From: Geobacter sulfurreducens PCA
GTDB taxonomy: Bacteria; Desulfobacterota; Desulfuromonadia; Geobacterales; Geobacteraceae
DNA length: 32,000 nt
NCBI RefSeq assembly: GCF_000007985.2
Contig: NC_002939.5
Coordinates: forward strand, 2,760,001 to 2,792,000
Direction of reading: 5' to 3'
Positions 12,610 to 28,176 of this stretch are shown piece by piece. The position numbers were made by a program, and so were the translations under genes. Within the stretch, counting starts at the first letter, position 1, and each line of letters opens with the position of its first letter. The notes beneath the pieces are model-generated. The model searched no databases. It was not told the DNA's origin and saw only the letters and a list, made by a program, of their open reading frames with translations.

Positions 12610-13050
12610 ATGATTTCAAAAGCTATCAGTGCCCAATGCCGCCACCTGCATCGGGCCGCCGTTCTTGTGGCAGTGATGTCCGCCCTTGCCGCAACCGGCT
12701 GTTCGAAGAAGGAGGCACCGCAGGCACCCGCGCCGTCCGCCGGGACGCCGCAGGCAGGGGCGCCGGCCGCCATGCCCGAGGGGATGAGCGGCCAGCAGCA
12801 AACCGCCATGGGACGGGCCATCTTCAACAAGCGGTGCGCCAGCTGCCACGGCACGGACGGCAACGGCGCGGGGAGCCGCAGCGGACCGGCACTCGACCAG
12901 GCCCAGTTCAAGTACGGCAGAACCCCCGAGGCAATCCGGGAAAGCATCGTCAAGGGACGCCCCAACGGCATGCCTGCCTTTGGAGCCGCCTTCCAGGAAA
13001 TTGAAATCGACACCCTGGTCGGCTACGTGATGGGTCTCACCAAGCAGTAA
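12610..13050 (+). CDS. Monoheme class I c-type cytochrome, probable lipoprotein
   Basis: 146 aa. Lipobox-like LAATGC, a single CXXCH motif (CASCHG), and a distal Met region NGMPAF typical of class I cytochromes c. Confidence 0.85.
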   Translation: MISKAISAQCRHLHRAAVLVAVMSALAATGCSKKEAPQAPAPSAGTPQAGAPAAMPEGMSGQQQTAMGRAIFNKRCASCHGTDGNGAGSRSGPALDQAQFKYGRTPEAIRESIVKGRPNGMPAFGAAFQEIEIDTLVGYVMGLTKQ

Positions 13051-13089
13051 ATTACGTCACCCATTCGCCACGTTCCCGCCCCGAAGACA

Positions 13090-13118
13090 CCCCCTGCCCT
13101 GACGGGAGGGCACGGGGG
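13090..13118 (+). terminator. GC-rich hairpin downstream of the cytochrome gene (no U-tract)
   Basis: CCCCCTGCCCT / AGGGCA-c-GGGGG forms an 11-bp stem with one bulge and a 6-nt loop, 40 nt after the stop codon. No T-run follows, so terminator function is uncertain. Confidence 0.3.
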
Positions 13119-13320
13119 CCTCTCGGAGAAAACACCCCGCACGAAAGCGGGATCCAGGGGTGCTGGAAATCGGATCAATGGCATCTCAACTCAATCCAGG
13201 TGTCCCGGTGACAACAGCAAAAAGTGGCGTCTTTTCAGGCGTGGAGCTCTCTTCACGGCTGAACCAAAATGCTACAACATGTGCAATCGTCATTATTTTG
13301 CACTCCGAACGCTTTTGTTT

Positions 13321-13349
13321 TTGACACAGAGTTTCTAATCTGATACAAA
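13321..13349 (+). promoter_or_regulatory. Sigma-70-type promoter driving the riboswitch leader
   Basis: TTGACA (13321..13326), 17-nt spacer, TACAAA (13344..13349). It lies about 30 nt upstream of the aptamer. Confidence 0.5.
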
Positions 13350-13374
13350 AGTGTATCAATTAACCAGAGCAGTA

Positions 13375-13466
13375 AGCTGGCGATAGCGATACTACTAAAC
13401 CATCCGCGAGGATGGGGCGGAAAGCCCACAGGGTCTCACGAAGACAGCCGGGTTGCCGAACTATCA
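13375..13466 (+). promoter_or_regulatory. GEMM-I cyclic-dinucleotide riboswitch aptamer (A20-type, possible 3',3'-cGAMP class)
   Basis: ACUAAACCAUCC-GCGA-GGAUGGGGCGGAAAGCC...AGCCGGGUUGCC aligns with the Vibrio Vc2 aptamer GGCAAACCAUUC-GAAA-GAGUGGGACGCAAAGCC...AGCGGGGUUACC. A GNRA-capped P1b helix is present. The Vc2 G21-C46 pair is replaced by a compensatory C(13395)-G(13420) pair. The position equivalent to G20 is A (13394). Confidence 0.7.
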
Positions 13467-13498
13467 CACCACGATAGGGCGGCGGCCCGGCTTTTTTT
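13447..13498 (+). terminator. Riboswitch expression platform: intrinsic terminator
   Basis: GCCGGGUUGCCG (13447..13458) pairs with CGGCGGCCCGGC (13480..13491): 12 bp including two G-U pairs. An inner CUAUC/GAUAG extension is present and a U7 run follows (13492..13498). The 5' arm is shared with the 3' strand of the aptamer. Confidence 0.7.
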
Positions 13499-13609
13499 GT
13501 GCCGTGGCCGCGCCGGCCGGTGACGGAAGGGAGGTGACCACTAACCGATAGAGACCGGCCATGATCTACACACGACACGGATTCAGGCATCCTATTCAGG
13601 GAGGAAACT

Positions 13610-14035
13610 ATGGCTAAAAGAATTCAGACCGTTACGAGAGGGCACATTACAGCCGCAGCGGCCCTGGTCATCGGCGTGCTGGCGGCATTCACCGCGGACG
13701 CCAATACGGGCCGGACCGCCGACGGTTCGGTACCACGCACCCCGGCCATCATAGCCACACCCGGCGAACGGACAATTCAAGCCGACCCCGCCTACCCGCT
13801 CCCCCAACCGGCAGAGCGAAAATCACGGACTGAGGCGCGCCGTTCAGGCCCCATTGACGGAGCTACGCTCTACTATACCGGCAACTGCGCCGGTTGCCAC
13901 GGCACCATGGCGAACATGAAGGGAACCACGGCGGAAATGATCCGCTTCGCCATCGACAACAACGTGGGCGGCATGGGCTTTCACGTGAACCTTACCCCGG
14001 AAGAACTCCACTCCATTGCCGACGCCCTCAAATAA
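13610..14035 (+). CDS. Small periplasmic monoheme c-type cytochrome
   Basis: 141 aa. GGAGG Shine-Dalgarno, signal peptide (AAALVIGVLAAFTADA), one CXXCH motif (CAGCHG). Confidence 0.8.
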   Translation: MAKRIQTVTRGHITAAAALVIGVLAAFTADANTGRTADGSVPRTPAIIATPGERTIQADPAYPLPQPAERKSRTEARRSGPIDGATLYYTGNCAGCHGTMANMKGTTAEMIRFAIDNNVGGMGFHVNLTPEELHSIADALK

Positions 14036-14044
14036 CCGCGAAAA

Positions 14045-14074
14045 GGAAGGGGCCACCGCTTCCGGTGCCCTTCC
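14045..14074. terminator. Hairpin after the cytochrome gene
   Basis: GGAAGGGGCCACCG-CTTC-CGGTGCCCTTCC, a stem with two bulged bases. A T-run follows only in the minus-strand reading (TTTT, 14041..14044). Confidence 0.35.
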
Positions 14075-14146
14075 ACCACATCCCTTCAGACATGTACCCG
14101 AAAAACAACGCTCTCACCAACGTCCCGTCGTAAGTCCTGCCAATTG

Positions 14147-14176
14147 AAAAGGGCCACCGACTCTGGTGACCCTTTT
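14147..14176. terminator. Bidirectional intrinsic terminator between convergent transcription units
   Basis: AAAAGGGCCACC (14147..14158), loop GACTCT, GGTGACCCTTTT (14165..14176). There is one mismatch, and A/T runs sit on both flanks so a U-tract follows on either strand. It lies between the cytochrome gene (+) and the rhodanese operon end (-). Confidence 0.55.
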
Positions 14177-14339
14177 ACAGATCACATTCTCCGCTATCGA
14201 TCCAATCTTCCATGAAAGTAATTGCGAGGCAGTGCGGCTGCCGGCGCTGCGACGCACGCGTCCGGCAACGTGAGGCAGCCGTGACGCCACAGCGATCGAA
14301 CCGACCATAATTACCACCAGGAACGTACCAATCGGGACA

Positions 14340-15083
14340 CTACCTTGCTACCGGCAGCCCCGCCTCCTTCCACTCGACGAACAGCGACTGGAATATTGAG
14401 GGATAGGCGAGGCCGATCAGCTTCTTGTAGGCCATGTAGCTGCGGCTGCCCGTATTGCAGTAGACAATGATCTTCTTTTCCTTGGGCAGTTGGTCGGACC
14501 GTGCCGCAAGCTGCTCGGCCGGGATATTGATGGCCGTGGGGATGTGCCCCTCCTCGAACTCCATATCATCCCTCACGTCGATCAGGACATAGTCCTGGCT
14601 GCCGGAGCGGATCATCCGGTCCAGCTCGGCTGCCGGGACTATGGTCGTCTCGATCTTCCTGCCGTAGCCCGCCCCCTTGACGATGGGGAGACCCCGCTCT
14701 TCCCAGACCGGCATCCCTTCGTTATAAACGGCAATGGCGGTGTAGCCCAGGGGTTCCACCTTTTTGGCCACCCGCTTGCTTTTGCCGCACTTGATACCGT
14801 TGCAGTAGAGAACGATGAGCTTCGCCTTGTCGGCCGGGAGTTGCGCCGAAGCGCTGTCGAAGGTCTTCTCCGGCACGTTGACCGCTCCGACGATGTGCGC
14901 TTCCGCATACTCTTCGGGGGTCCGGGCATCGATCAGCAGGAAATCCCGCTTCTCGTCGATCATGGCCTTCAGGTGGTCCGTGGTCACGACCGGGTAATCC
15001 CCGGCGGCCCAGCCGGCACCGCCGGCCAGGATGCCGAGGGCCAGGACGGCGCATGCCAGCGCACGCTGCACAATTTGTTTCAT
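14340..15083 (-). CDS. Periplasmic tandem-rhodanese sulfurtransferase
   Basis: The start is placed at the internal ATG at 15083, which has an AAAGGAGGA Shine-Dalgarno and opens MKQIVQRALACAVLALGILAGGAGWA (signal peptide). Two rhodanese domains carry active-site loops YCNGIKCGKS and YCNTGSRS. Confidence 0.85.
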   Translation of the reverse strand: MKQIVQRALACAVLALGILAGGAGWAAGDYPVVTTDHLKAMIDEKRDFLLIDARTPEEYAEAHIVGAVNVPEKTFDSASAQLPADKAKLIVLYCNGIKCGKSKRVAKKVEPLGYTAIAVYNEGMPVWEERGLPIVKGAGYGRKIETTIVPAAELDRMIRSGSQDYVLIDVRDDMEFEEGHIPTAINIPAEQLAARSDQLPKEKKIIVYCNTGSRSYMAYKKLIGLAYPSIFQSLFVEWKEAGLPVAR

Positions 15084-15199
15084 GGTTCTTCCTCCTTTGG
15101 GTGACAGGCTCGGGCAGGAACGCCCGGATTTCATAACCCCGCGCGGGGGCGACACAACATCAGACGGATCGCTTCGGCCGGACCGGGGGCCGCGGCGGA

Positions 15200-17197
15200 T
15201 CAGCGGTGCAGCCTTTTCCACTCCTCCATGCCCCCCTCGTAATTGCGGGCAGGGCCCAGGCCGGCCAGTTCGTGCACCATCAGGGCGTACGCCGACCGGA
15301 TTCCCCCGGCACAGTAATAGACAACGGGCCGGTCCGCATCGACCCCGTTCCTGGCCAGAAGCCTGCGCACCTCGGCCGGAGCCAGGGGGCGACGCTCCTT
15401 GCCCGTAAAGAACTTGTTCCAGGGGATGTGCACCGAGCCTGGGATACGTCCGGCGAGCCGCTCGAAAAAGGAGCGGGTATCGATAATCGTGACCGCGCCG
15501 AGCGAACGCTCCAGTTCGGCGGTGGTAATATCTTCCTCGGGCCGAACGGCAGAGCGGTACGTCAGGGTGCCGCCGCTGTACCGTTCATGGCCTCGCGTGA
15601 GGGGAAGTCCCGCGGCGGTCCAGGCCTGGATGCCGCCGTTGAGCATCCGCACGGGGCCCTTGTGCCCGAGCCAGGCCAGGACCCAGGCGGCCCAGCCCTC
15701 CCCTCCCCAGCTCTTGTCCGCATCCCCGTACACCACCACGGGAGTCCGCTCGTCGATCCCCATGGATCCCAGGGCCCGGGCGAGGTCGCGGGGCGGCCAG
15801 AGCTTGTAGGGGACCCCCTTGTCGTCCGTTCTGGTGTAGTTCTCCCACGAAAAGGAACGGGCGCCGGGGATGTGACCCGCCTGCCAGTCGGAGCGCGGAC
15901 GGCCGTCGAGCACCACCCAGGTTCCGGGGGCGCGCGCCAGGGTCTGGGGCTCCATCAGCCCGAAATCGCGGGCTGACGCACCGGAAACGGCAAGCATCAC
16001 CACAAGGACAGCCGCCGCCAGCATCAGGAGGATGAGTACGGCGGCGCGTCTCCCGCCGACAGCGCTGCCGACGCCATCGGCAGCGCTGCGGAAGGTCCGC
16101 TCCCGCGACGAGGCCACCGGGAGGCTGCGGCGCAACCGCCTCTTCAGCAGCAACCGGTTCAGGTAGGTCCGGGGACCGCTGGCCACCTTGACCCTGCCCG
16201 CCAGGGCGGCCTCAGGTTCGAAAAGCAGGTCCGCCACGTGGCTGGTGGGCGTGTGCGGACCGAGATACGAGGCGCAGCCGGCACAGTAGGTGATCGTCGT
16301 GCTGCCGCCGGCCTCTGCCGCGCGCAGGGAGGTCCATGCCCCGGCCAGGCGGGGCGCGGTGCAGCGGACCGCTCCTCCCTCGCCGCAGCAGAGGGTCCGG
16401 ACGCCGTGGTGGGGCATTTCCCGAACCCTGAGCCCGGCTGCGCCCAGCAGCGTTCTCACGGCCGCGTGCACCCCGGCGTTATCGCGCGAGACGCAGGGAT
16501 CGTGCACGGTCACAGCGCCCTCGGTCTGTTTGAAGCTGATGCCCGCCCGCGCCAGTACCTCGTAAACGGTGACCACCTCCAGCTCCGGGGCATAGCGGGA
16601 GAACACCTCATGGCAGTTGGGACAGGCCACCTGGACGGTCTTCACCCCCTGCGCCAGCAGGTAGGCCTTCATTTCGCCGAACATGGCCGTAAAGTGCCCG
16701 GATCGTCCCAGGTCGTGGGACGGCTTGGTGCAACAGTCGAGAACCATGCCGAGGGATGGTTCGCTGCCGCGCAGCAGGTCGAAGAGCTTCAGCGTTGTCC
16801 GGGGGCGGGTCCCCGGCAGCGCGCAGCCGGGGAAAAAGATCGTACGGCACCCGTCGGGGAGCCCGTACCAGGTGAAAAGTCTCGATGTCCCGGCCCGCTC
16901 GTAGGAAAGGAGCCCCCGGTAGGGAGACAGTTGCAGCGTACCGGCATCGGCGGTGGCGCGCCGCATGGCAAGGAACAGGGCGGCAGGATCGACCCCTTCG
17001 GGGCAGACCGCGCGGCAGAGGCCGCACAGGCTGCACCCGAAGGGGAGATGGGACTGGTCCAGTCGCCGGGGGTCAAAGGATGCTGCCAGCGCCTTTGGCG
17101 TGCCGTGCTCCCGCAGGAAGGCGCATTCGGCTACGCAGATGCCGCAGGCGGTGCAACGCGTCGCCACGTCACCGGCGGACCAGGGGGAATGACTCAT
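15200..17197 (-). CDS. HdrD/GlcF-like Fe-S + CCG-domain protein fused through one TM helix to a tandem rhodanese module
   Basis: Two ferredoxin-type motifs (CTACGICVAEC, CSLCGLCRAVCP) and two CCG-type Cys-rich regions (CCTKP...CPNC; CCGEGG...CAGC). An Arg-rich linker leads into a TM helix (AAVLILLMLAAAVLVVMLAV). Rhodanese 1 lacks the catalytic Cys (YGDADKSWG); rhodanese 2 has it (YYCAGGIRS). The ATG at 17197 overlaps the upstream stop (ATGA). Confidence 0.85.
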   Translation of the reverse strand: MSHSPWSAGDVATRCTACGICVAECAFLREHGTPKALAASFDPRRLDQSHLPFGCSLCGLCRAVCPEGVDPAALFLAMRRATADAGTLQLSPYRGLLSYERAGTSRLFTWYGLPDGCRTIFFPGCALPGTRPRTTLKLFDLLRGSEPSLGMVLDCCTKPSHDLGRSGHFTAMFGEMKAYLLAQGVKTVQVACPNCHEVFSRYAPELEVVTVYEVLARAGISFKQTEGAVTVHDPCVSRDNAGVHAAVRTLLGAAGLRVREMPHHGVRTLCCGEGGAVRCTAPRLAGAWTSLRAAEAGGSTTITYCAGCASYLGPHTPTSHVADLLFEPEAALAGRVKVASGPRTYLNRLLLKRRLRRSLPVASSRERTFRSAADGVGSAVGGRRAAVLILLMLAAAVLVVMLAVSGASARDFGLMEPQTLARAPGTWVVLDGRPRSDWQAGHIPGARSFSWENYTRTDDKGVPYKLWPPRDLARALGSMGIDERTPVVVYGDADKSWGGEGWAAWVLAWLGHKGPVRMLNGGIQAWTAAGLPLTRGHERYSGGTLTYRSAVRPEEDITTAELERSLGAVTIIDTRSFFERLAGRIPGSVHIPWNKFFTGKERRPLAPAEVRRLLARNGVDADRPVVYYCAGGIRSAYALMVHELAGLGPARNYEGGMEEWKRLHR

Positions 17198-17616
17198 TTG
17201 CCCGATTCGCAGAGCTGGGGATGGGGCCACCCCTCCATTCCTTTTTCAAGGATGAAGAGCCGCTTCTCATCCACGCCGCGGGACTTCAGGTAGTCATAGG
17301 TGTTCTTGGCACCGCCGCCGCCCCGGGGGCAAACGATAACCACTTCATCGGCGGAGGCGTTGATCCGCTCGAGGGTCTTGTCGAGCCGCTGCTTTTCCTC
17401 GTCGCTCTTGACGGGATAGGCGTTGGTTTCGAGGGAGCCCTTGAAATGGCGCTTCTGGAACGATTCGGGGGTCTGGATGTCCACGATGACCATGGACTTG
17501 CCGCCTTCGACCCACTGCTTGAATGTGTCCTGATTCACGTACCGGTAATCGGCCGCCAGCGCCGCTACCGCGAAGGCCACCACCATCATTGCTGCCAGCA
17601 CTACTACTTTTCTCAT
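17194..17616 (-). CDS. Periplasmic single-domain rhodanese
   Basis: 140 aa. AAGGAG Shine-Dalgarno, signal peptide (VVLAAMMVVAFAVAALA), active-site loop VCPRGGGGAKN. Confidence 0.85.
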   Translation of the reverse strand: MRKVVVLAAMMVVAFAVAALAADYRYVNQDTFKQWVEGGKSMVIVDIQTPESFQKRHFKGSLETNAYPVKSDEEKQRLDKTLERINASADEVVIVCPRGGGGAKNTYDYLKSRGVDEKRLFILEKGMEGWPHPQLCESGK

Positions 17617-17643
17617 TCGATTCTCCTTTTTTCCGGGACCGCC

Positions 17644-18807
17644 CTAGGCGGTCCTCTTCATTGAACGGTGGACAATTTCGAGGAATGCCTCGACCCGGAC
17701 CTTGAGCTGGCCCGTGTCCGACTCCGAATAGTCGGTTTCGATCTGGAGGAACGGCAAACCGGTCCGCTGCTGGAGATGCTTCTTCAGGACCGATGATTCG
17801 ACGGCATAGGTATGGCACCCGAGCCAGGTCAGGTCCACGACTCCGTCCACGCGGAATTCGCGCGTCAGGCGCTCCACCAGCTCCAATCGGCCGGTATTTG
17901 GCGACATGCATGAGCAGGGCACCTTCAGGTACCGTTCGGCGATGGCCCGAAGCGGGTCGCCGCCCTCCCGCACCTGCTCCACCTTCTTGTAAGCCCCGCA
18001 GCTCTCCAGGCAGACCACCGAAGCGCCGCTCTCCTCGATGATCCGGATCAGCTTTTCCGAACCGACTCCCACCGGCACGCCGGTGAGCAGAATCCGCGGG
18101 GTGGATTCGGTGAAGGGGGAAATGCCCGCCGCGGCCATCTGCCGCAACTCAGCCGCGAACCGGTCCACCAGCTCGATGGCTGCCCGCCGGTCCACGGAAA
18201 AGCCGCGGTTGTGAAGGACGGTCAGCAGGTCGAGGCCGCTGATGGGGGACGGGATGGCCTTGCAGACATCCTGGAGGGCCTGGAGGGACCGGCGTTCTTC
18301 GTTCATGAGTCGGATGGCTTCGGTCAGGGCCTTGTCGGTGATCCGCACCCCGAACTCCCGTTCGAGCCGGGTCTTGAGCCGACCGATCTCCATGAGCCAG
18401 TAGTCCAGGGCAGCCTCGTCCTGGATCTGGGGAAGCTGCATCACATGGATCGGCTTGAGCTCCCCCAGGAGCTCATACATCTTTTTCTTGCCGTCGCAGG
18501 TGGTCTCTGCCAGGAGGAAGTCGGCAAAGTGAAAATAGGGACAGGTGTCCGTGACGGCAAACCCGTAGCTCGACTTGATGAGCGGACAGAGGTTGCGGGG
18601 CAGCACCTTCTCGGCCGCGGGGATCGGCTTCTGGCTCGTGCCGCAGAGCGACACGGGAATGGCGCCGGCCGCCAGAATCAATTCCGTCGGCGAGAAGAGA
18701 CAGTAGGTGCCCACCGCGTGCCGGCCGGCTTCCCTGGCCTCCTTGAGGGCGATGAGATTGCGCTCCTTGAGGGTGGCAATCTCGGCAAAGGTTTCTGAAT
18801 GTATCAT
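17644..18807 (-). CDS. 2-hydroxyacyl-CoA dehydratase (HGD-D) family protein, double-cubane-cluster-protein-like
   Basis: 387 aa with the family's scattered cysteines (GTYCLFSP, SLCGTS, NLCPLIK, DTCPYF, TTCDGKKK, VVCLESCG, VPCSCMSP, LGCHTY). It lies directly downstream of an activase-type ATPase and appears as a single subunit, not an alpha/beta pair. Confidence 0.8.
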   Translation of the reverse strand: MIHSETFAEIATLKERNLIALKEAREAGRHAVGTYCLFSPTELILAAGAIPVSLCGTSQKPIPAAEKVLPRNLCPLIKSSYGFAVTDTCPYFHFADFLLAETTCDGKKKMYELLGELKPIHVMQLPQIQDEAALDYWLMEIGRLKTRLEREFGVRITDKALTEAIRLMNEERRSLQALQDVCKAIPSPISGLDLLTVLHNRGFSVDRRAAIELVDRFAAELRQMAAAGISPFTESTPRILLTGVPVGVGSEKLIRIIEESGASVVCLESCGAYKKVEQVREGGDPLRAIAERYLKVPCSCMSPNTGRLELVERLTREFRVDGVVDLTWLGCHTYAVESSVLKKHLQQRTGLPFLQIETDYSESDTGQLKVRVEAFLEIVHRSMKRTA

Positions 18808-18840
18808 GGCGACGGGATGGCCTCTTTCCGGACCGGCATG

Positions 18841-19602
18841 CTACGCATTGCAGCCGATGAGGGCGGCGCCGAGGGCGCCCACGATCTGGGGGTCTTCCGG
18901 CACGTGCAGGGAAAGCCCCAGCCGCCGGGCGATGACGCCGCTGATGGAGCCGTTGGTGGCGAGTCCCCCGGTGAAGGTAATCCCCTCGTGGGCTTCCAGC
19001 CGCCCCACCAGCCCTTCCATCCGGCGGGCGATGGCGTCGATGATGCCGGCCGCAATGGCGCCCTTGGGCGTTCCCTGGGCGAGGAGGCCGATGATTTCCG
19101 ATTCGGCGAAGACCGTGCACATGCTGGTGAGCGGCACCGGTTCGCTGGACGCGGCCAGGGAGCCGAGCTCGTCGAGGGTGAGGTCGAGGATGCCCGCCAT
19201 GACCTGGAGAAAACGGCCGGTGCCCGCGGCGCACTTGTCGTTCATGATGAAGTCGGATACCGACCCGTCGTCGCTTACCAGGATGACCTTGCTGTCCTGG
19301 CCGCCGATATCGATGACCGCGCGGGTGTCGGGATTCAGGTACCAGGCCCCGCGCGCGTGACAGGAAATCTCCGTGACCCGCTGGTCGCTGAACGGCAGAG
19401 ATACCCGGCCGTAACCGGTGCCCACCACGCGGGAGACGCTTTCTTCCCGGAGGCCGGCGGACGAAAGAGCTTCGCGAAAGGCCCGAAGGCCCGCCTCGCG
19501 CGGCTCCCAGCCGGTGGGTACCACTGCCCGGCCGCGAACCATGCCGTCGAACACGACTGCCTTGGTGGCGGTGGAGCCGATGTCGATCCCGACACTCACC
19601 AT
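18841..19602 (-). CDS. BcrAD/BadFG/HgdC-type activase ATPase (ATP-dependent electron-injecting reductase)
   Basis: The start is placed at the ATG at 19602, which has a GGGAGG Shine-Dalgarno. ASKHA phosphate-1 motif GIDIGSTATKAV, and the two cluster-bridging Cys contexts DKCAAGTGRF and CTVFAESEIIG. Confidence 0.9.
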   Translation of the reverse strand: MVSVGIDIGSTATKAVVFDGMVRGRAVVPTGWEPREAGLRAFREALSSAGLREESVSRVVGTGYGRVSLPFSDQRVTEISCHARGAWYLNPDTRAVIDIGGQDSKVILVSDDGSVSDFIMNDKCAAGTGRFLQVMAGILDLTLDELGSLAASSEPVPLTSMCTVFAESEIIGLLAQGTPKGAIAAGIIDAIARRMEGLVGRLEAHEGITFTGGLATNGSISGVIARRLGLSLHVPEDPQIVGALGAALIGCNA

Positions 19603-19651
19603 ATCTGCCTCCCGCCGCAGCAGCGCCGCGGCATCACACAATCAGCACCCA

Positions 19652-20239
19652 TTACAGGCGAATGACGGAACCGGCCGTGAGCAGCGCCTCGGCCGTGGTG
19701 AACATATTGGTTACCGTTCCGGCCGCGAGTTTCTCCTTGCAGTGGAAAAAGTCGAGACAGACGCCGCAAGAAAGGACCTCTACACCCCGGTTGCCCAGCT
19801 GCTCCAGCGCCTGAAGCACCTCCGACCCTTCGGTGGTGAGGAGCACGCCCGAGTTGAGGAACATCATCCGGTCAGGGAGACTCTCCTGGTCGAGCAGCGT
19901 AATGATGAAGCTCTTCATCAGGAGCCGGCCGAGGTCCTCGGGGCCGTCGCCCAGGCGGTCAGAGGTGATGAGCATGACCGTCCGGCCCTGCCGCGCGGGG
20001 TTCTCCGCCGGGGCCGAAGGGGCGCCCTCCCCGCTGCCGATGGTGATGGCAAAGCCGCCGTCCGCCTCCTCGACAGCCACCCTGAATCCCCGGTTGGCGG
20101 CGAAGCGGGCCACGTTCTCGCGGGGCGCCCCCGCATCGACGAGCACCCGCACGGTCTCTCCGCCTGCCTCCTCCAGTGCCCGCTTGGTGGTCACCACCGG
20201 AGCCGGGCACGCCATATTCCTGCAATCGATCGTTTTCAT
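19652..20239 (-). CDS. yedF: YedF-type protein (TusA/SirA-like domain fused to DsrE-like domain)
   Basis: 195 aa. N-terminal TusA motif CRNMACPAPV. The C-terminal DsrE/DsrF-like half reads RTVMLITSDRLG...VEVLSCGVCLDFF. This length and architecture match the YedF family. Confidence 0.8.
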   Translation of the reverse strand: MKTIDCRNMACPAPVVTTKRALEEAGGETVRVLVDAGAPRENVARFAANRGFRVAVEEADGGFAITIGSGEGAPSAPAENPARQGRTVMLITSDRLGDGPEDLGRLLMKSFIITLLDQESLPDRMMFLNSGVLLTTEGSEVLQALEQLGNRGVEVLSCGVCLDFFHCKEKLAAGTVTNMFTTAEALLTAGSVIRL

Positions 20240-20255
20240 ACGAGCTGTAACCTTC

Positions 20256-20773
20256 CTACATCCAGAGGACCCAGGAGTCCTGGATGTTCTTCATGAGCCA
20301 GTCGCCGGCAGCCTTTTCCACGAAATCGAACTTGTCGCCCCCCACGGCGCCGGCATATTCGGCGCACGGCGGGCAGACGCCGAACCAGGCCCCCTTGTCC
20401 TTGAGCTTTTTCATGATGCTTTCGGCATTGCCGAACTTCTTGAAGATGGGGGATTCGATCCGCCCGGCCTTGTTGCTGTTGGCCAGATCGGCCCCTTCCA
20501 GGTCATCCAGACGTGGAGCTTGCCCCAACCCTTGTCGGCAACCACCTGGGCCATGAGCAGGGCAAAGACGGCACGGTTCGGGTCATTGCCGCCATTGGTG
20601 ATGACGATGACGTATTTGCCCTTCCCTTCCGGATCACCCGCAAATGCCTGCCCCCCCATGAGTCCGGCAAGGCCGGCCGCGCCGAGCCCCATGCCGATGG
20701 TCCTGAGGAAGTCACCCCTCGAAACCGCTTCCGCTACCGAAGATTCCGGGCACTCCGTTTCTTCCCTTTTCAT
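20256..20773 (-). pseudogene. DsrE-family exported protein with CPPC motif, interrupted by a 1-nt frameshift
   Basis: ORF 20411..20773 encodes a Tat-like signal (SRGDFLRTIGMGLGAAGLAG) plus KYVIVITNGGNDPNRAVFALLMAQVVADKGWGKLHVWM. ORF 20256..20528, in the -1 frame, continues LEGADLANSNKAG...WFGVCPPCAEY. Restoring one C in the minus-strand ATGACCTGG (plus-strand GG at 20501..20502) gives a continuous HVWMTLEGADLA. Confidence 0.7.
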
Positions 20774-20827
20774 GAGAATCCCTCCGTGATAAATTCATAG
20801 GATAAAATTATGCAAATTATCGACTAA

Positions 20828-20856
20828 TTGACAGAAACAGGTCAAATTGATATTTT
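20828..20856 (+). promoter_or_regulatory. Sigma-70-type promoter for the LysR gene in the divergent AT-rich region
   Basis: TTGACA (20828..20833), 17-nt spacer, TATTTT (20851..20856). The opposite strand carries TTGACC, an 18-nt spacer and GATAAT, a candidate promoter for the operon. Confidence 0.4.
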
Positions 20857-20899
20857 TCATATATAAAATAACTCCAATTGAGAAAGGCGATAGCGCTCC

Positions 20900-21796
20900 A
20901 TGAACCTCAAGCAGCTCGAAGTATTTCTGGCCGTCGCCGAGAGCGGCAGTTTCTCCCGTGGCGCCGAAGCCACCTTCCTTACCCAGTCCACCGTAAGCCA
21001 GCACATTGCCGCCCTGGAGAGCGAGGTGGGCGTGCGGCTCCTGGACCGGACGAGCCGAGGGGCGCTCCTCACCGAGGGGGGGAAAATCCTGCTGGAGCAC
21101 GCCCGGAAAGTGGTGGCCGGCAGCCGCGAGATCAGCAAAGTCATGCGGCGGTTCCGGGGACTTGAGGAGGCGGAGTTGCGCATCGGCGGCAGCACCATTC
21201 CCGCCGACTACATGATTCCCGCCATGCTCGCCTCGTTCCTGGGCCGGCACCCCGGCGTCCAGGTGACGCTGCTCCAGGGGGACAGCCGCGACATCCTGGA
21301 CCGGATCGAGCGGGAGGACGCGGAGGTGGGCATCATCGGCAGCCGTTTCGACGAGGAGGGGTTCACCTTCACCCCCCTCGGCCGGGACGAGATACGACTC
21401 ATCGCCGCCCCGGACCATCCTCTGGCGGGCACCGGAGCCGTTCCTCTCGCCGAGCTGGCGAACCACGGCTTCGTCTTCCGCGAGCTGGGGTCGGGCACGG
21501 CCAAGAGCGTTGCCGAGGCGCTGGCGGGGGCGGGCCTGCCCGCCGAGAAGCTCCACGTCCGCGCCTGCCTGGGAAGCAACGAGGCGGTCAAGCAGGCCGT
21601 TGCGGCGGGACTCGGCCTGTCGTTCGTGTCGGAGCTGTCGGTGCGCAAGGAACTTGCCCGGGGCGAACTGGTCGAACTGCCGGTGGAGGGGCTGACCATT
21701 GCCCGGACCTTTTATCTCGTCGCCCGTACCGGCCGGGAACTCTCCCCCCCGGCAGTCGCCTTCATCGGCGAACTGACCGGAACCCGGCTCGCCTGA
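20900..21796 (+). CDS. LysR-family transcriptional regulator
   Basis: 298 aa. The N-terminal wHTH MNLKQLEVFLAVAESGSFSRGAEATFLTQSTVSQHIAALE is canonical LysR. The gene is divergent from the sulfur-carrier operon. Confidence 0.95.
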   Translation: MNLKQLEVFLAVAESGSFSRGAEATFLTQSTVSQHIAALESEVGVRLLDRTSRGALLTEGGKILLEHARKVVAGSREISKVMRRFRGLEEAELRIGGSTIPADYMIPAMLASFLGRHPGVQVTLLQGDSRDILDRIEREDAEVGIIGSRFDEEGFTFTPLGRDEIRLIAAPDHPLAGTGAVPLAELANHGFVFRELGSGTAKSVAEALAGAGLPAEKLHVRACLGSNEAVKQAVAAGLGLSFVSELSVRKELARGELVELPVEGLTIARTFYLVARTGRELSPPAVAFIGELTGTRLA

Positions 21797-21829: not shown

Positions 21830-23224
<1,395 letters not shown>

Positions 23225-23245: not shown

Positions 23246-23749
23246 TCAGAATTCAGCGACGATCAGCTCTGACAGGGGCTTGCGGTCCGAGTGGTGGGGG
23301 ACCCCGGACGGACGGCCCACGGCGATCACCGCCATGAGCTCCAGATTCGGAGGGAGCCCCAGCAGGTCGCGCACCTGACCGGCGCTCTTCAGTATCTCGC
23401 CCAGCCACACGGCCCCGAGCCCCAGGGCGTGGGCCGCGAGCAGCATGTTCTGGAGGCAGGCTCCGATGGCCTGATGGTCCTTGGTCTCGTGGTACATGGC
23501 GTCCCGGTCGCAGAACACCGCAATGCTGACCGGCGCTCCTTCCACGATGTGGCGGTAGCGGGTGAGCCCCGCCAGGGACCGGAGCTTTTCCCGGTCGCGG
23601 ACCACGGCGAACCGCCACGGCTGATTGTTGAGCCCGGACGGTGCCCATGCCCCGGCCCGGAGGATATCCTCCACCTCTGCGGGGCTCACCGGTTCATCGG
23701 TGAATTGCCGCACGCTGCGGCGCGAAAGAATTCCCTCGAGCAGTTCCAT
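23246..23749 (-). CDS. Nitroreductase-family flavoprotein
   Basis: LSRRSVRQFTDEPV, APSGLNNQPWRF and the rest are typical of the nitroreductase fold. I prefer the ATG at 23749, which overlaps the upstream stop (TGATG), over the GTG at 23767. Confidence 0.85.
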   Translation of the reverse strand: MELLEGILSRRSVRQFTDEPVSPAEVEDILRAGAWAPSGLNNQPWRFAVVRDREKLRSLAGLTRYRHIVEGAPVSIAVFCDRDAMYHETKDHQAIGACLQNMLLAAHALGLGAVWLGEILKSAGQVRDLLGLPPNLELMAVIAVGRPSGVPHHSDRKPLSELIVAEF

Positions 23750-24483
23750 CAGCGCATCAACCGCCACAGGTAGATGAACGATCCTCCCACCGTCATGGCC
23801 GAAACGAGGCTCATGGCCTGGTGGACCGACATGGAAAAGGCTATCCGGCCCGGAAAGTCGGCCGCGTTGGAAGCCCCGCCCAGGAATTCGATCAGGTCAA
23901 CCCACTCCGGGTCCCACTGGTAGACCTGGAGGTAGAGGGCCGACCCCTTCCAGAGGAACAGGCAGACAAAGGCAACCCCGAAGGCGATGAATCCGCCGGA
24001 GATGGGGGAGTCCTTGATCTGGCGGTAAATCTTCAGAATCATGTCGAAGTTGACGATGGAAAGAAAAACCCAGTTGGCGTTGTCGATCATCCTGATCTGG
24101 CGCAGGACGTAATCGGACGGCGGCGGGTTGGTGTAAATGAGCAGGGCCGACAGTGCGATGGCCCCCACGGTCAGGATGGCAACGGTGCGCTTGCTGCCGG
24201 TTATTTCAAGGGTCCGGGTGAAGAGGTAGTACTCCCTGAACCCGAATGTCAGCACAATGATGGCGATGGTGCTGATCACGTAGTGGATCGCCGCCAGATG
24301 GTGGTACATGGAAAAGGGGTTGAGCGCGTAGACCTGGCTGAAGAAAATGAGGCAGAAGCCGATGGCGATGCTAGTCCAGAGGCGGGCGTTGCCGATGCTG
24401 AAATAGATGCTGATGATGGCGGCGATCAGCCAGAAGAAGACCTCAACGATAGTCACTATGGTGACATTATGGAGAAACTCCAC
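23749..24483 (-). CDS. Polytopic membrane protein of unknown function
   Basis: 244 aa with a GTG start and a GGGAGG Shine-Dalgarno 5 nt upstream. About seven hydrophobic segments and no motif I recognise. It is visibly more AT-rich than its neighbours. Confidence 0.6.
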   Translation of the reverse strand: MEFLHNVTIVTIVEVFFWLIAAIISIYFSIGNARLWTSIAIGFCLIFFSQVYALNPFSMYHHLAAIHYVISTIAIIVLTFGFREYYLFTRTLEITGSKRTVAILTVGAIALSALLIYTNPPPSDYVLRQIRMIDNANWVFLSIVNFDMILKIYRQIKDSPISGGFIAFGVAFVCLFLWKGSALYLQVYQWDPEWVDLIEFLGGASNAADFPGRIAFSMSVHQAMSLVSAMTVGGSFIYLWRLMR

Positions 24484-24671: not shown

Positions 24672-25973
24672 TCAGCGTTCGAGACGCACGGCCGCCACGA
24701 GTTCTTCCAGTTCGAGTCCGCTCCCGACCACAACACCAAGGCTGCCGTCATCCTCGCGGCGATAGAGGTCGAAGAGGGGGCGGCGTTGTCCGTCCTCTCC
24801 CTTGACGCTCTTGGCGGTGACGATCCCCACCCGGGCAAGCTGGGGCTGGGAGCAGGAGTTGGGGCAGCCGGATATGGACCACCGGAGCGCCGCGGCATCG
24901 TCACCCATGGCGCCGATAACAGCCCGGGCCACGTCCCTGGTCGGCGCGAGTCCCATGGCGCATTCGTGGCTGCCGGGGCAGATGCGGAAGGCTACCCGCT
25001 GTTCGGGACGGTCCGCAGCGAATCCGGCGGCGGCCACGGCGTCGAGGGCATCCTGACGGCGCACGGATTCGGGCAGGAGGAAGCGCACGTTCTGATCACC
25101 GGTGAGCACCATGAAGCCGCCGGCAACGTCACGGGCCACGGCGGCCAAGGACCGCAGGCCGCCCGTTGTCAGTTCGCCGGCAAAGACCGGTGCCTCCACG
25201 CAGACGCCGCCGGCGGCGACGGACGGGAACAGCTCGCCGCTGAAGGAGTCGGCCAGGGGCAGAGGCTGGTCTCCCCGGCGCTCCGCCACCAAGGCGAGGA
25301 AGTCCTCGCGGCCCAGGTCGCGGACCAGATGCTTGAGACGCTTTCCCTTGGGCGCACGCTCCTTGTAGACCCGGACAATGGCCTCCACCAGGGGGATGAT
25401 CCGATCCTCGGCCACCGCCTCCTCCACCAGGAATGCCGGCGAGGGTTCCCGGCCGAGGCCGCCGGCTGCCCAGACATCGTAGCGCGGTGCATCGGCCTCG
25501 TTCTCCCGGTGCACGAGCGACAGGTCCTGGATCAGGTGCCGCCCCTCGTTATCGCCGGTAAAAACGCCGATCTTGAATTTTTTAGGCAGCGCCTCGAAAT
25601 GGGGATTGCGGGTAAAGTGCAGATGGAGCTTGTGGGCCAGTGACTGGACCAGGGGCCAGGCCGCGGCGGTGACCGAGCCGCAGACCACCCCGCGCACCGC
25701 CCCGCCGCAGGCGCCGCGGGAGGTGAGGCCCACGGCGGCAAGGCCGCGCCAGACCGATGAAAGGTGATCCTCGGTGAGGCCGTGCAGCTCGATGCTTCCC
25801 CTGGTGGTAAGATGGAGCAGGCCGCCGGCGAACCGGTCGGCGATGTCGGCCACCGCCTCGGCCTGCTCCGCTGAAAGAATGCCCGCCGGCACCTTTATCC
25901 GGAGCATGAAGGTCCCGGGTTGTCGCTGGGCATACACGCCGTCAATTCTGAGCTGTTGCGGATCGAATCGCAT
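24672..25973 (-). CDS. Nitrite/sulfite reductase-family siroheme/[4Fe-4S] hemoprotein (short form)
   Basis: 433 aa. Cys cluster CPGSHEC ... CPNSC (CX5C-Xn-CX3C), preceded by ferredoxin-like half-domain repeats. Confidence 0.85.
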   Translation of the reverse strand: MRFDPQQLRIDGVYAQRQPGTFMLRIKVPAGILSAEQAEAVADIADRFAGGLLHLTTRGSIELHGLTEDHLSSVWRGLAAVGLTSRGACGGAVRGVVCGSVTAAAWPLVQSLAHKLHLHFTRNPHFEALPKKFKIGVFTGDNEGRHLIQDLSLVHRENEADAPRYDVWAAGGLGREPSPAFLVEEAVAEDRIIPLVEAIVRVYKERAPKGKRLKHLVRDLGREDFLALVAERRGDQPLPLADSFSGELFPSVAAGGVCVEAPVFAGELTTGGLRSLAAVARDVAGGFMVLTGDQNVRFLLPESVRRQDALDAVAAAGFAADRPEQRVAFRICPGSHECAMGLAPTRDVARAVIGAMGDDAAALRWSISGCPNSCSQPQLARVGIVTAKSVKGEDGQRRPLFDLYRREDDGSLGVVVGSGLELEELVAAVRLER

Positions 25974-27944: not shown

Positions 27945-28176
27945 GATCAACCTCCCCTCAGGCGTCCCGGGCGGGTGCTCTGCGGAAGGATTCCGGTCAC
28001 GGCCGCCGGCTGCGACCCAACTGACCGGAATTACCGGCACACAGCACCCCGGCGGGATACCGGGCTGTTTTACAATTCTAGCGATGGACGGGCGGGGCGC
28101 AACGCACCCTCCATCCATCTGGCAAAGACCGCTCCTTTTCGCTATACTGTCGGACAATTCGCGTCCCGGAGGTCCC

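Follow-up and report, generated by a model that had tools for sequence, protein, structure and literature searches.

A conserved LysR-linked operon of Geobacter sulfurreducens predicted to pair an ATP-driven double-cubane reductase with selenium/sulfur carriers

The locus and its control region

The window analysed here is a 32-kb stretch of the Geobacter sulfurreducens PCA genome, in which seven co-directional genes face a LysR-type regulator across an AT-rich region. The features are listed in coordinate order.

14340-20773, minus strand: predicted operon of seven co-directional genes, from ORF positions
14340..15083, minus strand: exported tandem rhodanese, probably GSU2516 (loops CNGIKCGK and CNTGSRS; PF00581 twice)
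15200..17197, minus strand: membrane fusion protein, probably GSU2517, HdrD/HdrB-like domain plus TM helix plus tandem rhodanese (profiles and motifs)
17194..17616, minus strand: exported single-domain rhodanese, GSU2518 (loop CPRGGGGA; PF00581, E = 1.4e-10)
17644..18807, minus strand: double-cubane cluster protein (DCCP), GSU2519, yjiM (NF040772, PF06050)
18841..19602, minus strand: DCCP reductase/activase-type ATPase, probably GSU2520 (TIGR00241, PF01869)
19652..20239, minus strand: YedF, probably GSU2521, TusA plus DsrE-like domains, putative cytoplasmic chalcogen carrier (TIGR03527)
20256..20773, minus strand: gene 1, probably GSU2522, exported DsrE-fold protein, here a pseudogene (two ORF fragments)
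20774..20899, minus strand: divergent AT-rich control region (126 nt, 32.5% GC)
20852-20841, within the control region: conserved operator-like element TATCAATTTGAC
20845-20828, within the control region: dyad TTGAC-N8-GTCAA
20821-20801, within the control region: second dyad GATAA-N11-TTATC
20900..21796, plus strand: GSU2523, LysR-type regulator of the LysR_Se/NF040786 family (291 bits)

The first-pass annotation had described seven co-directional genes, their gap lengths and a divergent LysR across an AT-rich region, all of which agree with the recomputed coordinates, and its domain calls hold in profile searches of the operon proteins and the LysR (TIGR03527, TIGR00241, PF06050, PF00581, HTH_1, LysR_substrate). 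In transcription order, the genes are separated by 16, 49, 33 and 27 nt, an ATGA overlap of 4 nt and 116 nt; no convincing terminator was found on the coding strand of the operon, whose GC content is 65%. The transcript evidence found comes from gsu1771 and csrA mutants only. In these RNA-seq tables, from which the label yjiM is taken, GSU2518 and GSU2519 are up in the gsu1771 mutant, a weak co-variation, and GSU2519 is up in the csrA mutant, both results being silent on selenium.

GSU2523 contains HTH_1 and LysR_substrate domains, exceeds the cutoff of NF040786 (LysR_Sec_metab, the selenium-metabolism-associated LysR; cutoff 250 bits) and is matched exactly by its published cloning primers at 20900-20923 and 21770-21793. 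Among the LysRs that adjoin DCCP genes elsewhere, those of Clostridia and Geomonas also pass this model, and those of Chloroflexota and Dehalococcoidia fall slightly under its cutoff. Sigma-70-like promoters are predicted on both strands of the control region, with no other promoter-like sites within 13900-21100. The 10-mer TATCAATTTG occurs just upstream of the first gene of the module in PCA, strain YM18 and loci L001, L002/L087, L088, L093, L105, L112, L113 and L137, and of the 16 copies of this 10-mer in the 1.9 Mb of loci fetched, 11 are such module-upstream sites. By this sequence comparison, a conserved, operator-like cis-element marks the divergent region in several lineages.

Proteins encoded by the module

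A 1-nt deletion in PCA breaks gene 1 into two ORFs, 20411-20773 and 20256-20528: positions 20501-20502 read CC, and a metagenome contig that is near-identical otherwise (L081) has CCC there and encodes an intact 172-aa protein. Across this 561-nt stretch, the DNA alignment of the two differs by that single C. The 172-aa form is also intact in strain YM18 and on record from 107 contigs, whereas the PCA genome record holds a 52-aa fragment only. The protein, which bears the invariant motif GVCPPCA, scores 21.5 bits against PF02635 (DsrE), below the cutoff of 22.7, and its homologues match in 15 of 15 cases; a structure model with a confident core gives DsrE, YchN and TusD as top PDB matches (TMt 0.67-0.80). 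Its DsrE-like nature is real, as modelled: weak by sequence and clear by fold. Of the earlier description as an exported DsrE-like CPPC protein, the fold stands and the intact gene does not. Selenoproteins, among them MccSep (PMC13510729), are made by PCA although gene 1 is broken, so that at least this gene is dispensable in laboratory media, which counts against a selenium function.

The second gene product scores 227 bits against TIGR03527 (cutoff 110), is identical to AAR35894.1 and carries the confirmed motifs CPAP and CGVC in its TusA and DsrE-like domains, respectively; by profile and motif, GSU2521 is a bona fide YedF. The activase (265 bits with TIGR00241, 196 bits with PF01869) has its predicted cluster-bridging cysteines at C124 and C162, in the contexts NDKCAAGTG and SMCTVFAE. 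GSU2519, a member of the HGD-D family (PF06050, 404 bits), reaches 510 bits with the DCCP model NF040772 (cutoff 350) and at most 92 bits with the HadC and BzdN models, which rules out a CoA-ester dehydratase or reductase. The same protein does not cluster with CoA-ester enzymes when compared with PDB sequences (286 bits with DCCP 6ENO/7YYL against 85 with BzdN and 77 with HadC), in keeping with the first view of it as no conventional dehydratase. All cysteines common to GSU2519 and the C. hydrogenoformans DCCP are conserved, and its assignment as a DCCP is firm at the sequence level. DCCPs require ATP-energised electrons, as dithionite or Ti(III) citrate fail to reduce their cluster, and have no physiological role assigned (PMC9351452).

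Signal peptides were confirmed in GSU2516 and GSU2518, together with the active-site loop of GSU2518. A homologue of GSU2518 (68%) is found in the syntenic locus L088, and homologues of GSU2516 with 57-61% identity lie beside DCCP genes in Geomonas, the MAG L013 and L091. GSU2517 combines a cytoplasmic HdrD/HdrB-like domain, with two each of the CxxCxxCxxxC ([4Fe-4S]) and CCG motifs, a single TM helix at about 385-407 and a predicted periplasmic tandem rhodanese (C629, loop CAGGIR). Its N-terminal domain is related to 'diclust_near_Sec' (NF045663), of which it matches the C-terminal half with 207 bits, under the cutoff, and this relationship speaks for selenium. Homologues of the HdrD-like domain are mostly fused to VTT/DedA membrane domains, rhodanese fusions being rare. 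GSU2517 has a single helix, in contrast to the VTT/DedA domain of its homologues, and the operon encodes no obvious inner-membrane transporter; selenium would thus have no evident route across the membrane, which counts against it.

Conservation and linkage to selD

Synteny was found in other lineages, so that the adjacency noticed at first goes beyond chance. The metagenomic locus L088 retains the PCA order at 58-76% identity: a response regulator and LysR, then DsrE-like, YedF, activase, DCCP, rhodanese, HdrD-like membrane protein and rhodanese. In L091 the same families are shuffled. Co-directional arrays read DCCP-DCCP-activase-x-YedF-DsrE-like-SelD in L120 and YedF-DsrE-like-SelD in L119 and L155, and L105 has DCCP-activase-YedF-DsrE-like beside a LysR gene. 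On these comparisons, GSU2516-GSU2523 is a real, conserved operon that pairs a predicted ATP-driven double-cubane reductase with selenium/sulfur carriers.

In 32 of the 50 informative metagenome loci (those with enough downstream sequence), the gene directly downstream of the gene 1 family member is a selD with a TGA(Sec) codon, and 54 of 80 loci with the family hold selD, a LysR homologue (the one tested is LysR_Se) or module genes. In an unbiased census of 80 diverse DCCP loci, activase is adjacent in 59, followed by LysR (12), DUF3343 (11), an SclA-like desulfurase (10-11) and YedF (9). Published data point the same way: 955 of 970 DCCPs occur in SelD-encoding assemblies (Haft & Gwadz 2022), STRING links YedF, YedE and LysR_Se to activase and HGD-D proteins (Lin 2015, Table 1), and DCCP has been "provisionally linked to selenium" (PMC10418091). 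Judged from sequence, the protein families, their order and predicted topology, the conservation in other lineages and the physical linkage of relatives to selD form the established part of this account, and the support for a selenium role is guilt by association throughout.

Proposed role and alternative readings

Because its relatives in other bacteria adjoin SelD, the module most likely prepares selenium for the cell. The likeliest role would be selenium capture and ATP-driven reduction for SelD, and the chances that GSU2516-GSU2522, under LysR_Se control, serve to acquire and activate selenium appear roughly even. In the periplasm, the catalytic cysteines of the rhodaneses (GSU2516, GSU2518 and the GSU2517 C-terminal half) would bind selenium in the form of perselenide or selenotrisulfide, and the DsrE-fold CPPC protein would do likewise in strains where it is intact. 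At the inner membrane face, the CCG/[4Fe-4S] domain of GSU2517 may resolve S-Se or S-S bonds, and in the cytoplasm YedF would carry the chalcogen. The activase would supply the [8Fe-9S] cluster of DCCP with electrons of very low potential, driven by ATP hydrolysis, and DCCP may then reduce refractory selenium species (elemental or carrier-bound) to selenide for SelD, and GSU2523 would switch the operon according to selenium status through the conserved putative operator, which overlaps a -35 box. In vitro, SelD can accept selenium from rhodanese perselenide, and the potential usually given for the Se(0)/HSe- couple, about -0.7 V, is lower than that of ferredoxin. Against this role, selD, selA, selB and yedE are all missing from the 32-kb window, and we know of no DCCP for which a selenium substrate has been shown.

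Movement and reduction of sulfane sulfur (S0, polysulfide or persulfide), in S0 respiration, persulfide detoxification or sulfur assimilation, is unlikely, although it heads the alternatives. The folds of TusA, DsrE and rhodanese serve primarily in sulfur relay, and a sulfite-reductase-like gene is found 3 kb from the operon. S0 respiration by G. sulfurreducens and the classical role of rhodaneses in carrying polysulfide weigh against selenium. However, DCCPs follow SelD rather than sulfur respiration, polysulfide can be reduced without ATP-energised electrons, a reaction that MccSep already carries out in the periplasm (PMC13510729), and sHdr/LbpA, Psr and YedE genes are absent at the PCA locus. 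With the selenium-associated equivalog matches of the regulator and YedF and the mostly selD-adjacent gene 1 family, the published DCCP-SelD co-occurrence makes selenium clearly favoured by sequence as the chalcogen. The first-pass proposal of an ATP-coupled reductive module for sulfur or selenium, spanning cytoplasm and periplasm under a LysR, survives in its core, but no longer with the two elements left even.

Two further readings are somewhat less probable still. In cofactor maturation, YedF, the DsrE-like protein and the rhodaneses would feed selenium or sulfur into DCCP, for example as the Se atom bridging its two cubanes, a possibility listed by Haft & Gwadz 2022, and its substrate would be an unrelated small molecule. 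The near-perfect DCCP-SelD co-occurrence and the tight clustering of DCCP, activase, YedF, DUF3343 and SclA-like genes would be accounted for, but the [8Fe-9S] cluster of crystallised DCCP, presumably from heterologous production, is all-sulfur, a role in cytoplasmic cluster assembly is hard to reconcile with periplasmic carriers and with an exported protein encoded next to selD, and selD-terminated arrays suggest flow towards SelD and not DCCP. Equally doubtful is that the module salvages organo- or methyl-selenium or serves some other selenium-dependent pathway. DCCP would then act on an organic selenium or organometallic compound, by reductive cleavage or activation, and the carriers would take the released selenium; such a role has been put forward for DCCPs that adjoin SAO and corrinoid-methyltransferase (MGC) clusters, for which PMC10418091 proposes methyl-selenide recycling. 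DCCPs of Syntrophotalea and Desulfuromonas thiophila (~71% identical) adjoin a corrinoid/UroD/RACo methyltransferase cluster, accompanied in Syntrophotalea by YedF, a Sec-lyase-like gene, DUF3343 and an ABC transporter, and NitT/TauT-type ABC transporters rank second among the neighbours of DCCP genes; the Geobacter operon, however, lacks methyltransferase, corrinoid, ABC-transporter and lyase genes, and its extra parts are putative periplasmic inorganic-chalcogen carriers. Chance or merely regulatory adjacency of unrelated genes in one species is very improbable: all seven genes together, rhodanese fusion included, were found only in the G. sulfurreducens/anodireducens/soli clade, but the families recur together in different gene orders and lineages, and this synteny largely refutes it, with the very short gaps and overlap, the lack of a convincing terminator on the coding strand and the conserved upstream element as further points against it.

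As regards known systems, under sulfur trafficking the periplasmic rhodaneses would act like Wolinella Sud, and reduction of persulfides or polysulfides would fall to DCCP and the HdrD-like domain. The SelD-adjacent DsrE-like family, the HdrD-like membrane fusions and the composite operon appear undescribed in the literature searched, and the initial statement that no characterised system has such a composition is true; the association of YedF, LysR_Se and DCCP with selenium, however, was already in print (Lin 2015; Haft & Gwadz 2022; PMC10418091).

Operon layout and component proteins

The operon is transcribed from the minus strand, opposite a LysR-type regulator gene, and the reading frames on which its description rests are as follows:

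14340-20773, minus strand: seven co-directional reading frames, from the ORF listing
20411-20773 and 20256-20528, minus strand: overlapping ORF fragments of the first gene (gene 1), from the ORF listing
20900-21796, plus strand: LysR gene GSU2523, divergent from the operon

With start codons placed as in independent gene calls on near-identical contigs, successive genes are separated, in transcription order, by 16, 49, 33 and 27 nt, a 4-nt ATGA overlap and 116 nt. The spacer between the LysR gene and the operon is 126 nt long, with a GC content of 32.5% against 65% in the operon. The gene order, gaps, divergent regulator and AT-rich promoter region described in the first-pass annotation were recomputed, and the figures are exactly equal. 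Within 13900-21100, the only sigma-70-like promoters are located back to back in this spacer; no convincing coding-strand terminator was found within the operon, and Rfam and tRNA scans returned no match inside it.

Published cloning primers for GSU2523 match both ends of the LysR gene exactly, the HGD-D gene GSU2519 is named yjiM in RNA-seq tables, and three products are identical to G. sulfurreducens PCA records: the YedF protein (AAR35894.1), the HGD-D protein (AAR35892.1) and the HdrD-like/rhodanese fusion (AAR35890.1). The neighbouring genes, for cytochromes GSU2513 and GSU2515 and for a GGDEF/EAL protein, GSU2511, are consistent with the KN400 comparison paper. The tags 2518, 2519 and 2523 are thus direct and the remaining ones follow from the numbering; the operon is therefore GSU2516-GSU2522 and its regulator GSU2523. 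The only transcript evidence found comes from two RNA-seq tables, in which GSU2518 and GSU2519 rise in parallel when gsu1771 is mutated and GSU2519 rises in a csrA mutant; these changes are uninformative for function, and the operon genes are absent from the lists in the proteomics and cobalt datasets.

[quoted passage not shown] The PDB scores give the same picture, with 286 bits for the DCCP of Carboxydothermus hydrogenoformans against 85 for BzdN and 77 for HadC. An alignment with the C. hydrogenoformans protein among its members shows C36, C55, C74, C89, C104, C270, C298, C300 and C331 to be invariant, and every cysteine common to the two proteins is conserved. A single HGD-D gene lies 33 nt downstream of a single activase gene, with no alpha/beta pair. 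From these sequence comparisons, GSU2519 is a double-cubane cluster protein. Clustering with CoA-ester enzymes, which the first-pass annotation had named as the outcome that would count against its reading, is not seen, and its statement that no CoA-ester genes are adjacent extends to the whole window, whose ORFs include no CoA-transferase, ligase or beta-oxidation gene. The characterised DCCP is known to act on artificial substrates only (acetylene, hydrazine and azide) and its physiological role is unassigned (PMC9351452).

The partner ATPase, a BcrAD_BadFG gene product, matches TIGR00241 with 265 bits and carries the cluster cysteines C124 and C162. YedF (TIGR03527, 227 bits, cutoff 110) combines a TusA CPAP motif at residue 11 with a DsrE-like CGVC motif at residue 158. 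GSU2518 is a 140-aa rhodanese and GSU2516 a 247-aa tandem rhodanese, both with a signal peptide. Between them, the 665-aa GSU2517 contains two CxxCxxCxxxC motifs (C15/18/21/25 and C55/58/61/65) and two complete CCG motifs (C125...C155C156...C192xxC195 and C235...C270C271...C305xxC308), followed by a single hydrophobic helix at about 385-407 and a TST/MST-like tandem rhodanese with the catalytic loop CAGGIR in its second domain. Its N-terminal half matches both Fer4_17 and CCG in Pfam, as expected of an HdrD/HdrB-type protein. Against NF045663 ('diclust_near_Sec'), it reaches 207 bits (cutoff 530) over model positions 298-668 of 759; membership of that family is defined over the full length, including an N-terminal flavoprotein domain that GSU2517 does not match, and its HdrD-like domain is related to the C-terminal half of the family without belonging to it. 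The only other rhodanese-fusion homologue, P0123 (50% identity), sits on a contig too short to show its neighbourhood. The records for G. anodireducens and G. soli list the orthologue in pieces (P0241, P0246, P0247, P0249): a sulfurtransferase of 258-285 aa and, at another place, an Fe-S oxidoreductase of 414 aa. The fusion may be split or frameshifted in these species.

Gene 1 is broken in PCA. A metagenome contig that is 99% identical across the operon differs in a 561-nt stretch by a single extra C, reading ATGACCCTGG where the window reads ATGACCTGG (CC at 20501-20502), and encodes a single 172-aa protein. This intact form is also encoded by strain YM18 and recorded for 107 contigs, while the PCA genome record holds a 52-aa fragment only. 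All the family assignments of the first-pass annotation stand, with the exception that it took gene 1 as intact and missed the 1-nt deletion. A programmed frameshift was rejected because other strains have a continuous ORF and because the change amounts to the loss of one C (CCC to CC) at a site that lacks a slippery heptamer; it may be either a real mutation or a sequencing error. At its N terminus, the intact protein carries a Tat-like signal (SRGDFLR...AFA; SKRDFLK in relatives), and its GVCPPCA motif is invariant in the family. It scores 21.5 bits against PF02635 (cutoff 22.7), and all 15 homologues match this model at E <= 0.01. The core blocks of its AlphaFold model have pLDDT values of 81-95, and the best PDB matches of the model, with probability 1.00, are the DsrE-like 3MC3 and 3PNX, YchN, DsrEFH and TusD. 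The DsrE assignment is thus marginal by sequence and clear by predicted structure. PCA produces the selenoprotein MccSep (PMC13510729) despite the broken gene, which makes gene 1 dispensable in selenium-supplemented media; users of this reference strain should be warned that the first gene of the operon is broken in it.

Several further features were observed in the window. Downstream of the operon, a 1.29-kb segment at 13051-14339 (GC 57.8% against 64% for the window) is missing from YM18 (L085) and from the metagenome contig L081. It holds the gene for the monoheme cytochrome c GSU2515 (13610-14035, plus strand) and, about 150 nt upstream of it, an Rfam c-di-GMP-I (GEMM-I) riboswitch aptamer (13384-13460, plus strand; 44.4 bits, gathering score 35). 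Geobacter GEMM-I variants sense cyclic dinucleotides, including cGAMP. Of the PCA cytochromes, GSU2515 alone lacks an orthologue in KN400 (KN400 comparison paper). On the other side, a nitroreductase-family protein (23246-23767, minus strand) and a 433-aa NIR_SIR sulfite/nitrite-reductase-like protein (24672-25973, minus strand) are encoded 1.5-4 kb past the LysR gene, a position kept in YM18. Farther on, the start of an 858-aa EF-G-like ORF (27670-30246, plus strand), whose GTPase domain begins at residue 177, is probably over-extended, unless the protein has an unusual N-terminal extension.

Conservation, selD adjacency and the regulator

Exact-protein look-ups and a metagenome scan showed the complete seven-gene set, rhodanese fusion included, only in the G. 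sulfurreducens/anodireducens/soli clade. Beyond this clade, the module is kept in altered form. The metagenome locus L088 has a response regulator and LysR gene divergent from genes for DsrE-like, YedF, activase, DCCP, rhodanese, HdrD-like, YdjY and rhodanese proteins, in the same order as PCA and with 58-76% identity, its HdrD-like domain being joined to a VTT/DedA membrane domain, not to a helix and rhodaneses. In L091, the families are shuffled (LysR; then HdrD-like, divergent from DsrE-like, tandem rhodanese, DCCP, activase, TusA and DsrE), with a tandem rhodanese 61% identical to GSU2516, and in Geomonas a LysR gene is divergent from activase, DCCP and tandem rhodanese genes. Synteny in other genomes, by which the first-pass annotation proposed to judge whether the adjacency was accidental, is thus found, and chance adjacency of the operon genes is essentially excluded.

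An unbiased clustering of the ORFs around 80 diverse DCCP loci listed (GTDB genomes) gives a broader census. Full seven-gene synteny appears in none of these loci, few of which are from Desulfuromonadales, and the Geobacteraceae among them have the LysR-activase-DCCP(-rhodanese) core only. In Geobacter sp. AOG2, a LysR gene stands beside the DsrE-like gene only, with no DCCP nearby.

Neighbours of DCCP genes in the 80 GTDB loci listed
Activase: 59 of 80
NitT/TauT-type ABC ATPase: 22 of 80
LysR: 12 of 80
DUF3343: 11 of 80
SclA-like cysteine desulfurase: 10-11 of 80
YedF: 9 of 80

Two other arrangements were seen among relatives. A transglutaminase-core (PF01841) protein, not part of the PCA operon, is encoded near or downstream of the module in four of them (L087 12069-13079; L088 12188-13201; L089 2083-2682; L091 20216-20519). 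The enterobacterial yjiM loci of Citrobacter, Raoultella and Atlantibacter (L060, L061, L064, L066, L080) encode DCCP (YjiM), then the activase, then a protein of about 83 aa that resembles DUF3343 (a Se/S carrier) by eye and has no NCBIfam match; a MetC-like lyase and a LysR are encoded nearby, and the one LysR tested (L061) is YafC-like, not the selenium-associated LysR_Se.

Selenium enters the picture most directly through gene 1. A JGI metagenome scan with its family recovered 80 loci, and selD is the next gene in 32 of the 50 with at least 1.2 kb of downstream sequence (TIGR00476, 237 bits). The 35 plus-strand selD ORFs each carry an in-frame TGA, in the context ...SRTCG[U]AAKI, which indicates a selenocysteine-containing SelD. 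Overall, selD, a LysR homologue or module genes accompany gene 1 in 54 of the 80 loci (the one LysR tested, in L171, is LysR_Se), and both selD and module genes are present in six loci. L120, for instance, encodes on a single strand DCCP, DCCP, activase, an unassigned product, YedF, DsrE-like and SelD, and L119 and L155 encode YedF, DsrE-like and SelD. No sel genes occur in the 32-kb window. The gene-1/selD context provides the strongest argument that the operon may feed SelD rather than a sulfur pathway. Curated models also assign the regulator and YedF to selenium-associated equivalog families, both of which were defined through their association with SelD by Lin et al. 2015, where a STRING table already gives an activase and HGD-D subunits, uncommented, as partners. 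The relation of the HdrD-like domain to the C-terminal half of 'diclust_near_Sec' points the same way. DCCPs were found in SelD-encoding assemblies in 955 of 970 cases, with processing of a selenium compound suggested (Haft & Gwadz), and DCCP has been 'provisionally linked to selenium metabolism' (PMC10418091).

Genes for other periplasmic or chalcogen-related proteins lie close to these modules. A c7/c3-type multihaem cytochrome gene follows DsrE-like-selD in 15 metagenome loci (e.g. L101, L117), and a GSU2513-type monoheme cytochrome c gene adjoins the module in PCA (12610-13050, plus strand), YM18 and L088 (13285-13728), its position in L081 being 6663-7103; these periplasmic cytochromes may be part of the same process. 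Upstream of the module in L091 (4552-6136), a SLAC1/TehA-family (tellurite-resistance-type) anion channel, an ArsR-type regulator and a single rhodanese hint at chalcogen oxyanion handling.

The regulator GSU2523 scores 291 bits against NF040786 (LysR_Sec_metab, cutoff 250), the second-best family reaching 180 bits. LysRs that pass this model adjoin DCCP in Geomonas, Clostridia and Eubacteriales, and two more, from Chloroflexota and Dehalococcoidia, are just under the cutoff; in all, five of the seven non-enteric DCCP-neighbour LysRs tested pass it and two are just under. LysR_Se adjoins the DsrE-like gene in L171 and in PCA is divergent from the YedF/DCCP operon. The spacer carries TATCAATTTGAC and then a dyad, TTGAC-N8-GTCAA, that overlaps the -35 box. 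The 10-mer is also present a short distance upstream of the gene that opens the module in YM18, Geomonas and the loci L001, L088, L093, L105, L112, L113 and L137, as it is in PCA. It occurs 16 times in the 1.9 Mb of loci fetched; 11 of these sites are upstream of the module, the other five being about what chance would produce. Together, the 10-mer and the dyad fit a candidate LTTR operator. A sigma-54-dependent response regulator (21830-23224, plus strand) starts 33 nt past the LysR stop on the same strand, and the pair is also kept in the syntenic L088; this response regulator may be the second of two that act on the module. No convincing sigma-54 element (TGGCAC-N5-TTGC) was seen by eye in the intergenic region before the operon.

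A proposed selenium relay and competing readings

With the families, predicted topology, conservation and selD linkage of the operon established, a most likely mechanism can be proposed whose functional steps we infer throughout. The periplasmic rhodaneses, together with the DsrE-fold CPPC protein in strains that have it intact, would hold selenium on cysteines; the HdrD-like domain of GSU2517, at the inner membrane face, would resolve S-Se or S-S bonds; and YedF would serve as a selenium carrier. The activase would use ATP to supply energised electrons to DCCP, which would reduce recalcitrant selenium species to selenide for SelD, while GSU2523 would adjust expression of the operon to selenium status. 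The Se0/HSe- couple is usually quoted at about -0.7 V. The DCCP step is thermodynamically attractive because, at this potential, the couple is beyond ferredoxin and within 'archerase' reach.

It is a tentative and rather doubtful proposal that DCCP and its activase form the long-sought physiological ATP-driven 'selenium reductase', fed by a dedicated periplasm-to-cytoplasm relay and yielding selenide for SelD. Its substrates would be forms of selenium beyond ordinary cellular reductants, such as elemental selenium or carrier-bound perselenide, and the relay would comprise the exported DsrE-fold CPPC protein, the rhodaneses, the HdrD-like membrane protein and YedF. No transporter is evident in the operon; relatives have the VTT/DedA domain. 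If true, the proposal would give DCCPs, whose natural substrate has been missing since their discovery in 2018, a first natural function and explain their near-confinement to SelD-encoding anaerobes. The locus bears on that function, and also on the unsettled source of reduced selenium for SelD in anaerobes, especially those without glutathione where selenium is mostly insoluble Se0. Since G. sulfurreducens is genetically tractable and makes the selenoproteins formate dehydrogenase and MccSep, the hypothesis is directly testable.

A possible alternative is that the operon moves sulfur for S0 respiration, which G. sulfurreducens performs, and the authors of the MccSep study allow for additional periplasmic sulfur-transfer components (PMC13510729). 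This reading, however, leaves the selenium-family regulator, YedF and the selD adjacency unaccounted for, and ATP-energised electrons are unnecessary for the reduction of polysulfide. Two other readings stay within selenium metabolism: selenium may be incorporated into the double cubane during cofactor maturation, or the DCCP module may salvage organoselenium compounds, as the position of DCCP beside corrinoid methyltransferase clusters in Syntrophotalea would favour. An sHdr sulfur-transferase cascade or a YTD sulfur-disproportionation cluster was rejected, the marker genes being missing: sHdr (hdrC1B1AHC2B2), LbpA, Dsr and the YedE-like transporter with two conserved hypotheticals are all absent from the ORFs of the 32-kb window. 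A CoA-ester dehydratase or reductase is out, given how GSU2519 scores in the HMM and PDB comparisons, the presence of one HGD-D gene only and the missing CoA genes.

Comparison with known systems

The first-pass annotation knew of no characterised system of this composition. The locus is indeed genuine and conserved, and it is uncharacterised; that YedF, LysR_Se and DCCP are in general associated with selenium has been published before (Lin et al. 2015; Haft & Gwadz), and for this reason the operon is not a new kind of system. Four elements appear to be undescribed in the searchable literature: the Geobacter operon as a composite, the family of exported DsrE-fold CPPC proteins encoded next to selD, the HdrD-like domain with its alternating rhodanese and VTT/DedA partners, and the candidate operator. 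The DsrE-fold family, the partner-swapping domain and the candidate LysR_Se operator would sharpen the annotation of selenium genes in metagenomes.

Among the closest known systems are the bioinformatically defined selenium neighbourhoods of YedE, YedF, LysR_Se, DUF3343 and Sec-lyase (Lin et al. 2015), with which the Geobacter operon has YedF, LysR_Se and DCCP/activase in common. DCCP-SelD co-occurrence was defined bioinformatically (Haft & Gwadz 2022/2023; MGC clusters, PMC10418091), and an SclA-like desulfurase, DUF3343, LysR_Se and YedF recur around DCCPs across phyla. Compared with these neighbourhoods, the operon is without YedE, DUF3343 and the lyase, and has in addition the exported DsrE-fold CPPC protein, three rhodanese proteins and the HdrD-like membrane fusion. 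Neither the DsrE-like/selD adjacency nor the conserved operator was found in the accessible literature on selenium neighbourhoods. The C. hydrogenoformans DCCP/DCCP-R system (PDB 6ENO, 7YYL) resembles the operon in having a single HGD-D gene beside a single activase-type ATPase with two cluster-bridging cysteines, and the catalytic proteins are about 40% identical over their entire length, with the shared cysteines conserved; unlike in Geobacter, no link to YedF, LysR_Se or an exported chalcogen carrier is reported for it in the available literature. The 2-hydroxyacyl-CoA dehydratases (HgdAB/HadBC with HgdC/HadI) and class I Bcr/Bzd reductases belong to the same superfamily and share the 'archerase' principle, in which an ATPase with a bridging [4Fe-4S] cluster energises electrons for an HGD-D-fold partner, but GSU2519 reaches at most 92 bits against their cutoffs of 420-750, and there is one HGD-D gene instead of an alpha/beta pair.

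The carrier folds of the operon are those of the TusA-DsrE-rhodanese relays that feed Dsr/sHdr (PMC11094781) and of HdrD/HdrB reductases, and the logic is common to both: the chalcogen passes from cysteine to cysteine until it reaches a redox protein of the CCG/[4Fe-4S] type. The operon differs in that its carriers are mostly periplasmic and its terminal redox partner is an ATP-driven DCCP; in GSU2517, in contrast to HdrD/HdrB, a single helix links the CCG domain with periplasmic rhodaneses, and relatives have a VTT/DedA fusion. ExtH/ExtI selenite uptake in G. sulfurreducens likewise ties periplasmic rhodanese-type proteins to chalcogen oxyanions, whereas the ext cluster is of the cytochrome/porin type and maps to another part of the genome, and the scores of 17 bits for the ExtH model and 26 bits for YnjE indicate a weak relation. 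A last parallel is offered by the E. coli ydjXYZ-ynjE operon, which we take to encode DedA-family proteins, YdjY and a periplasmic rhodanese: in L088, an HdrD-like protein with a VTT (YdjX/YdjZ-type) domain is likewise followed by YdjY and a rhodanese.
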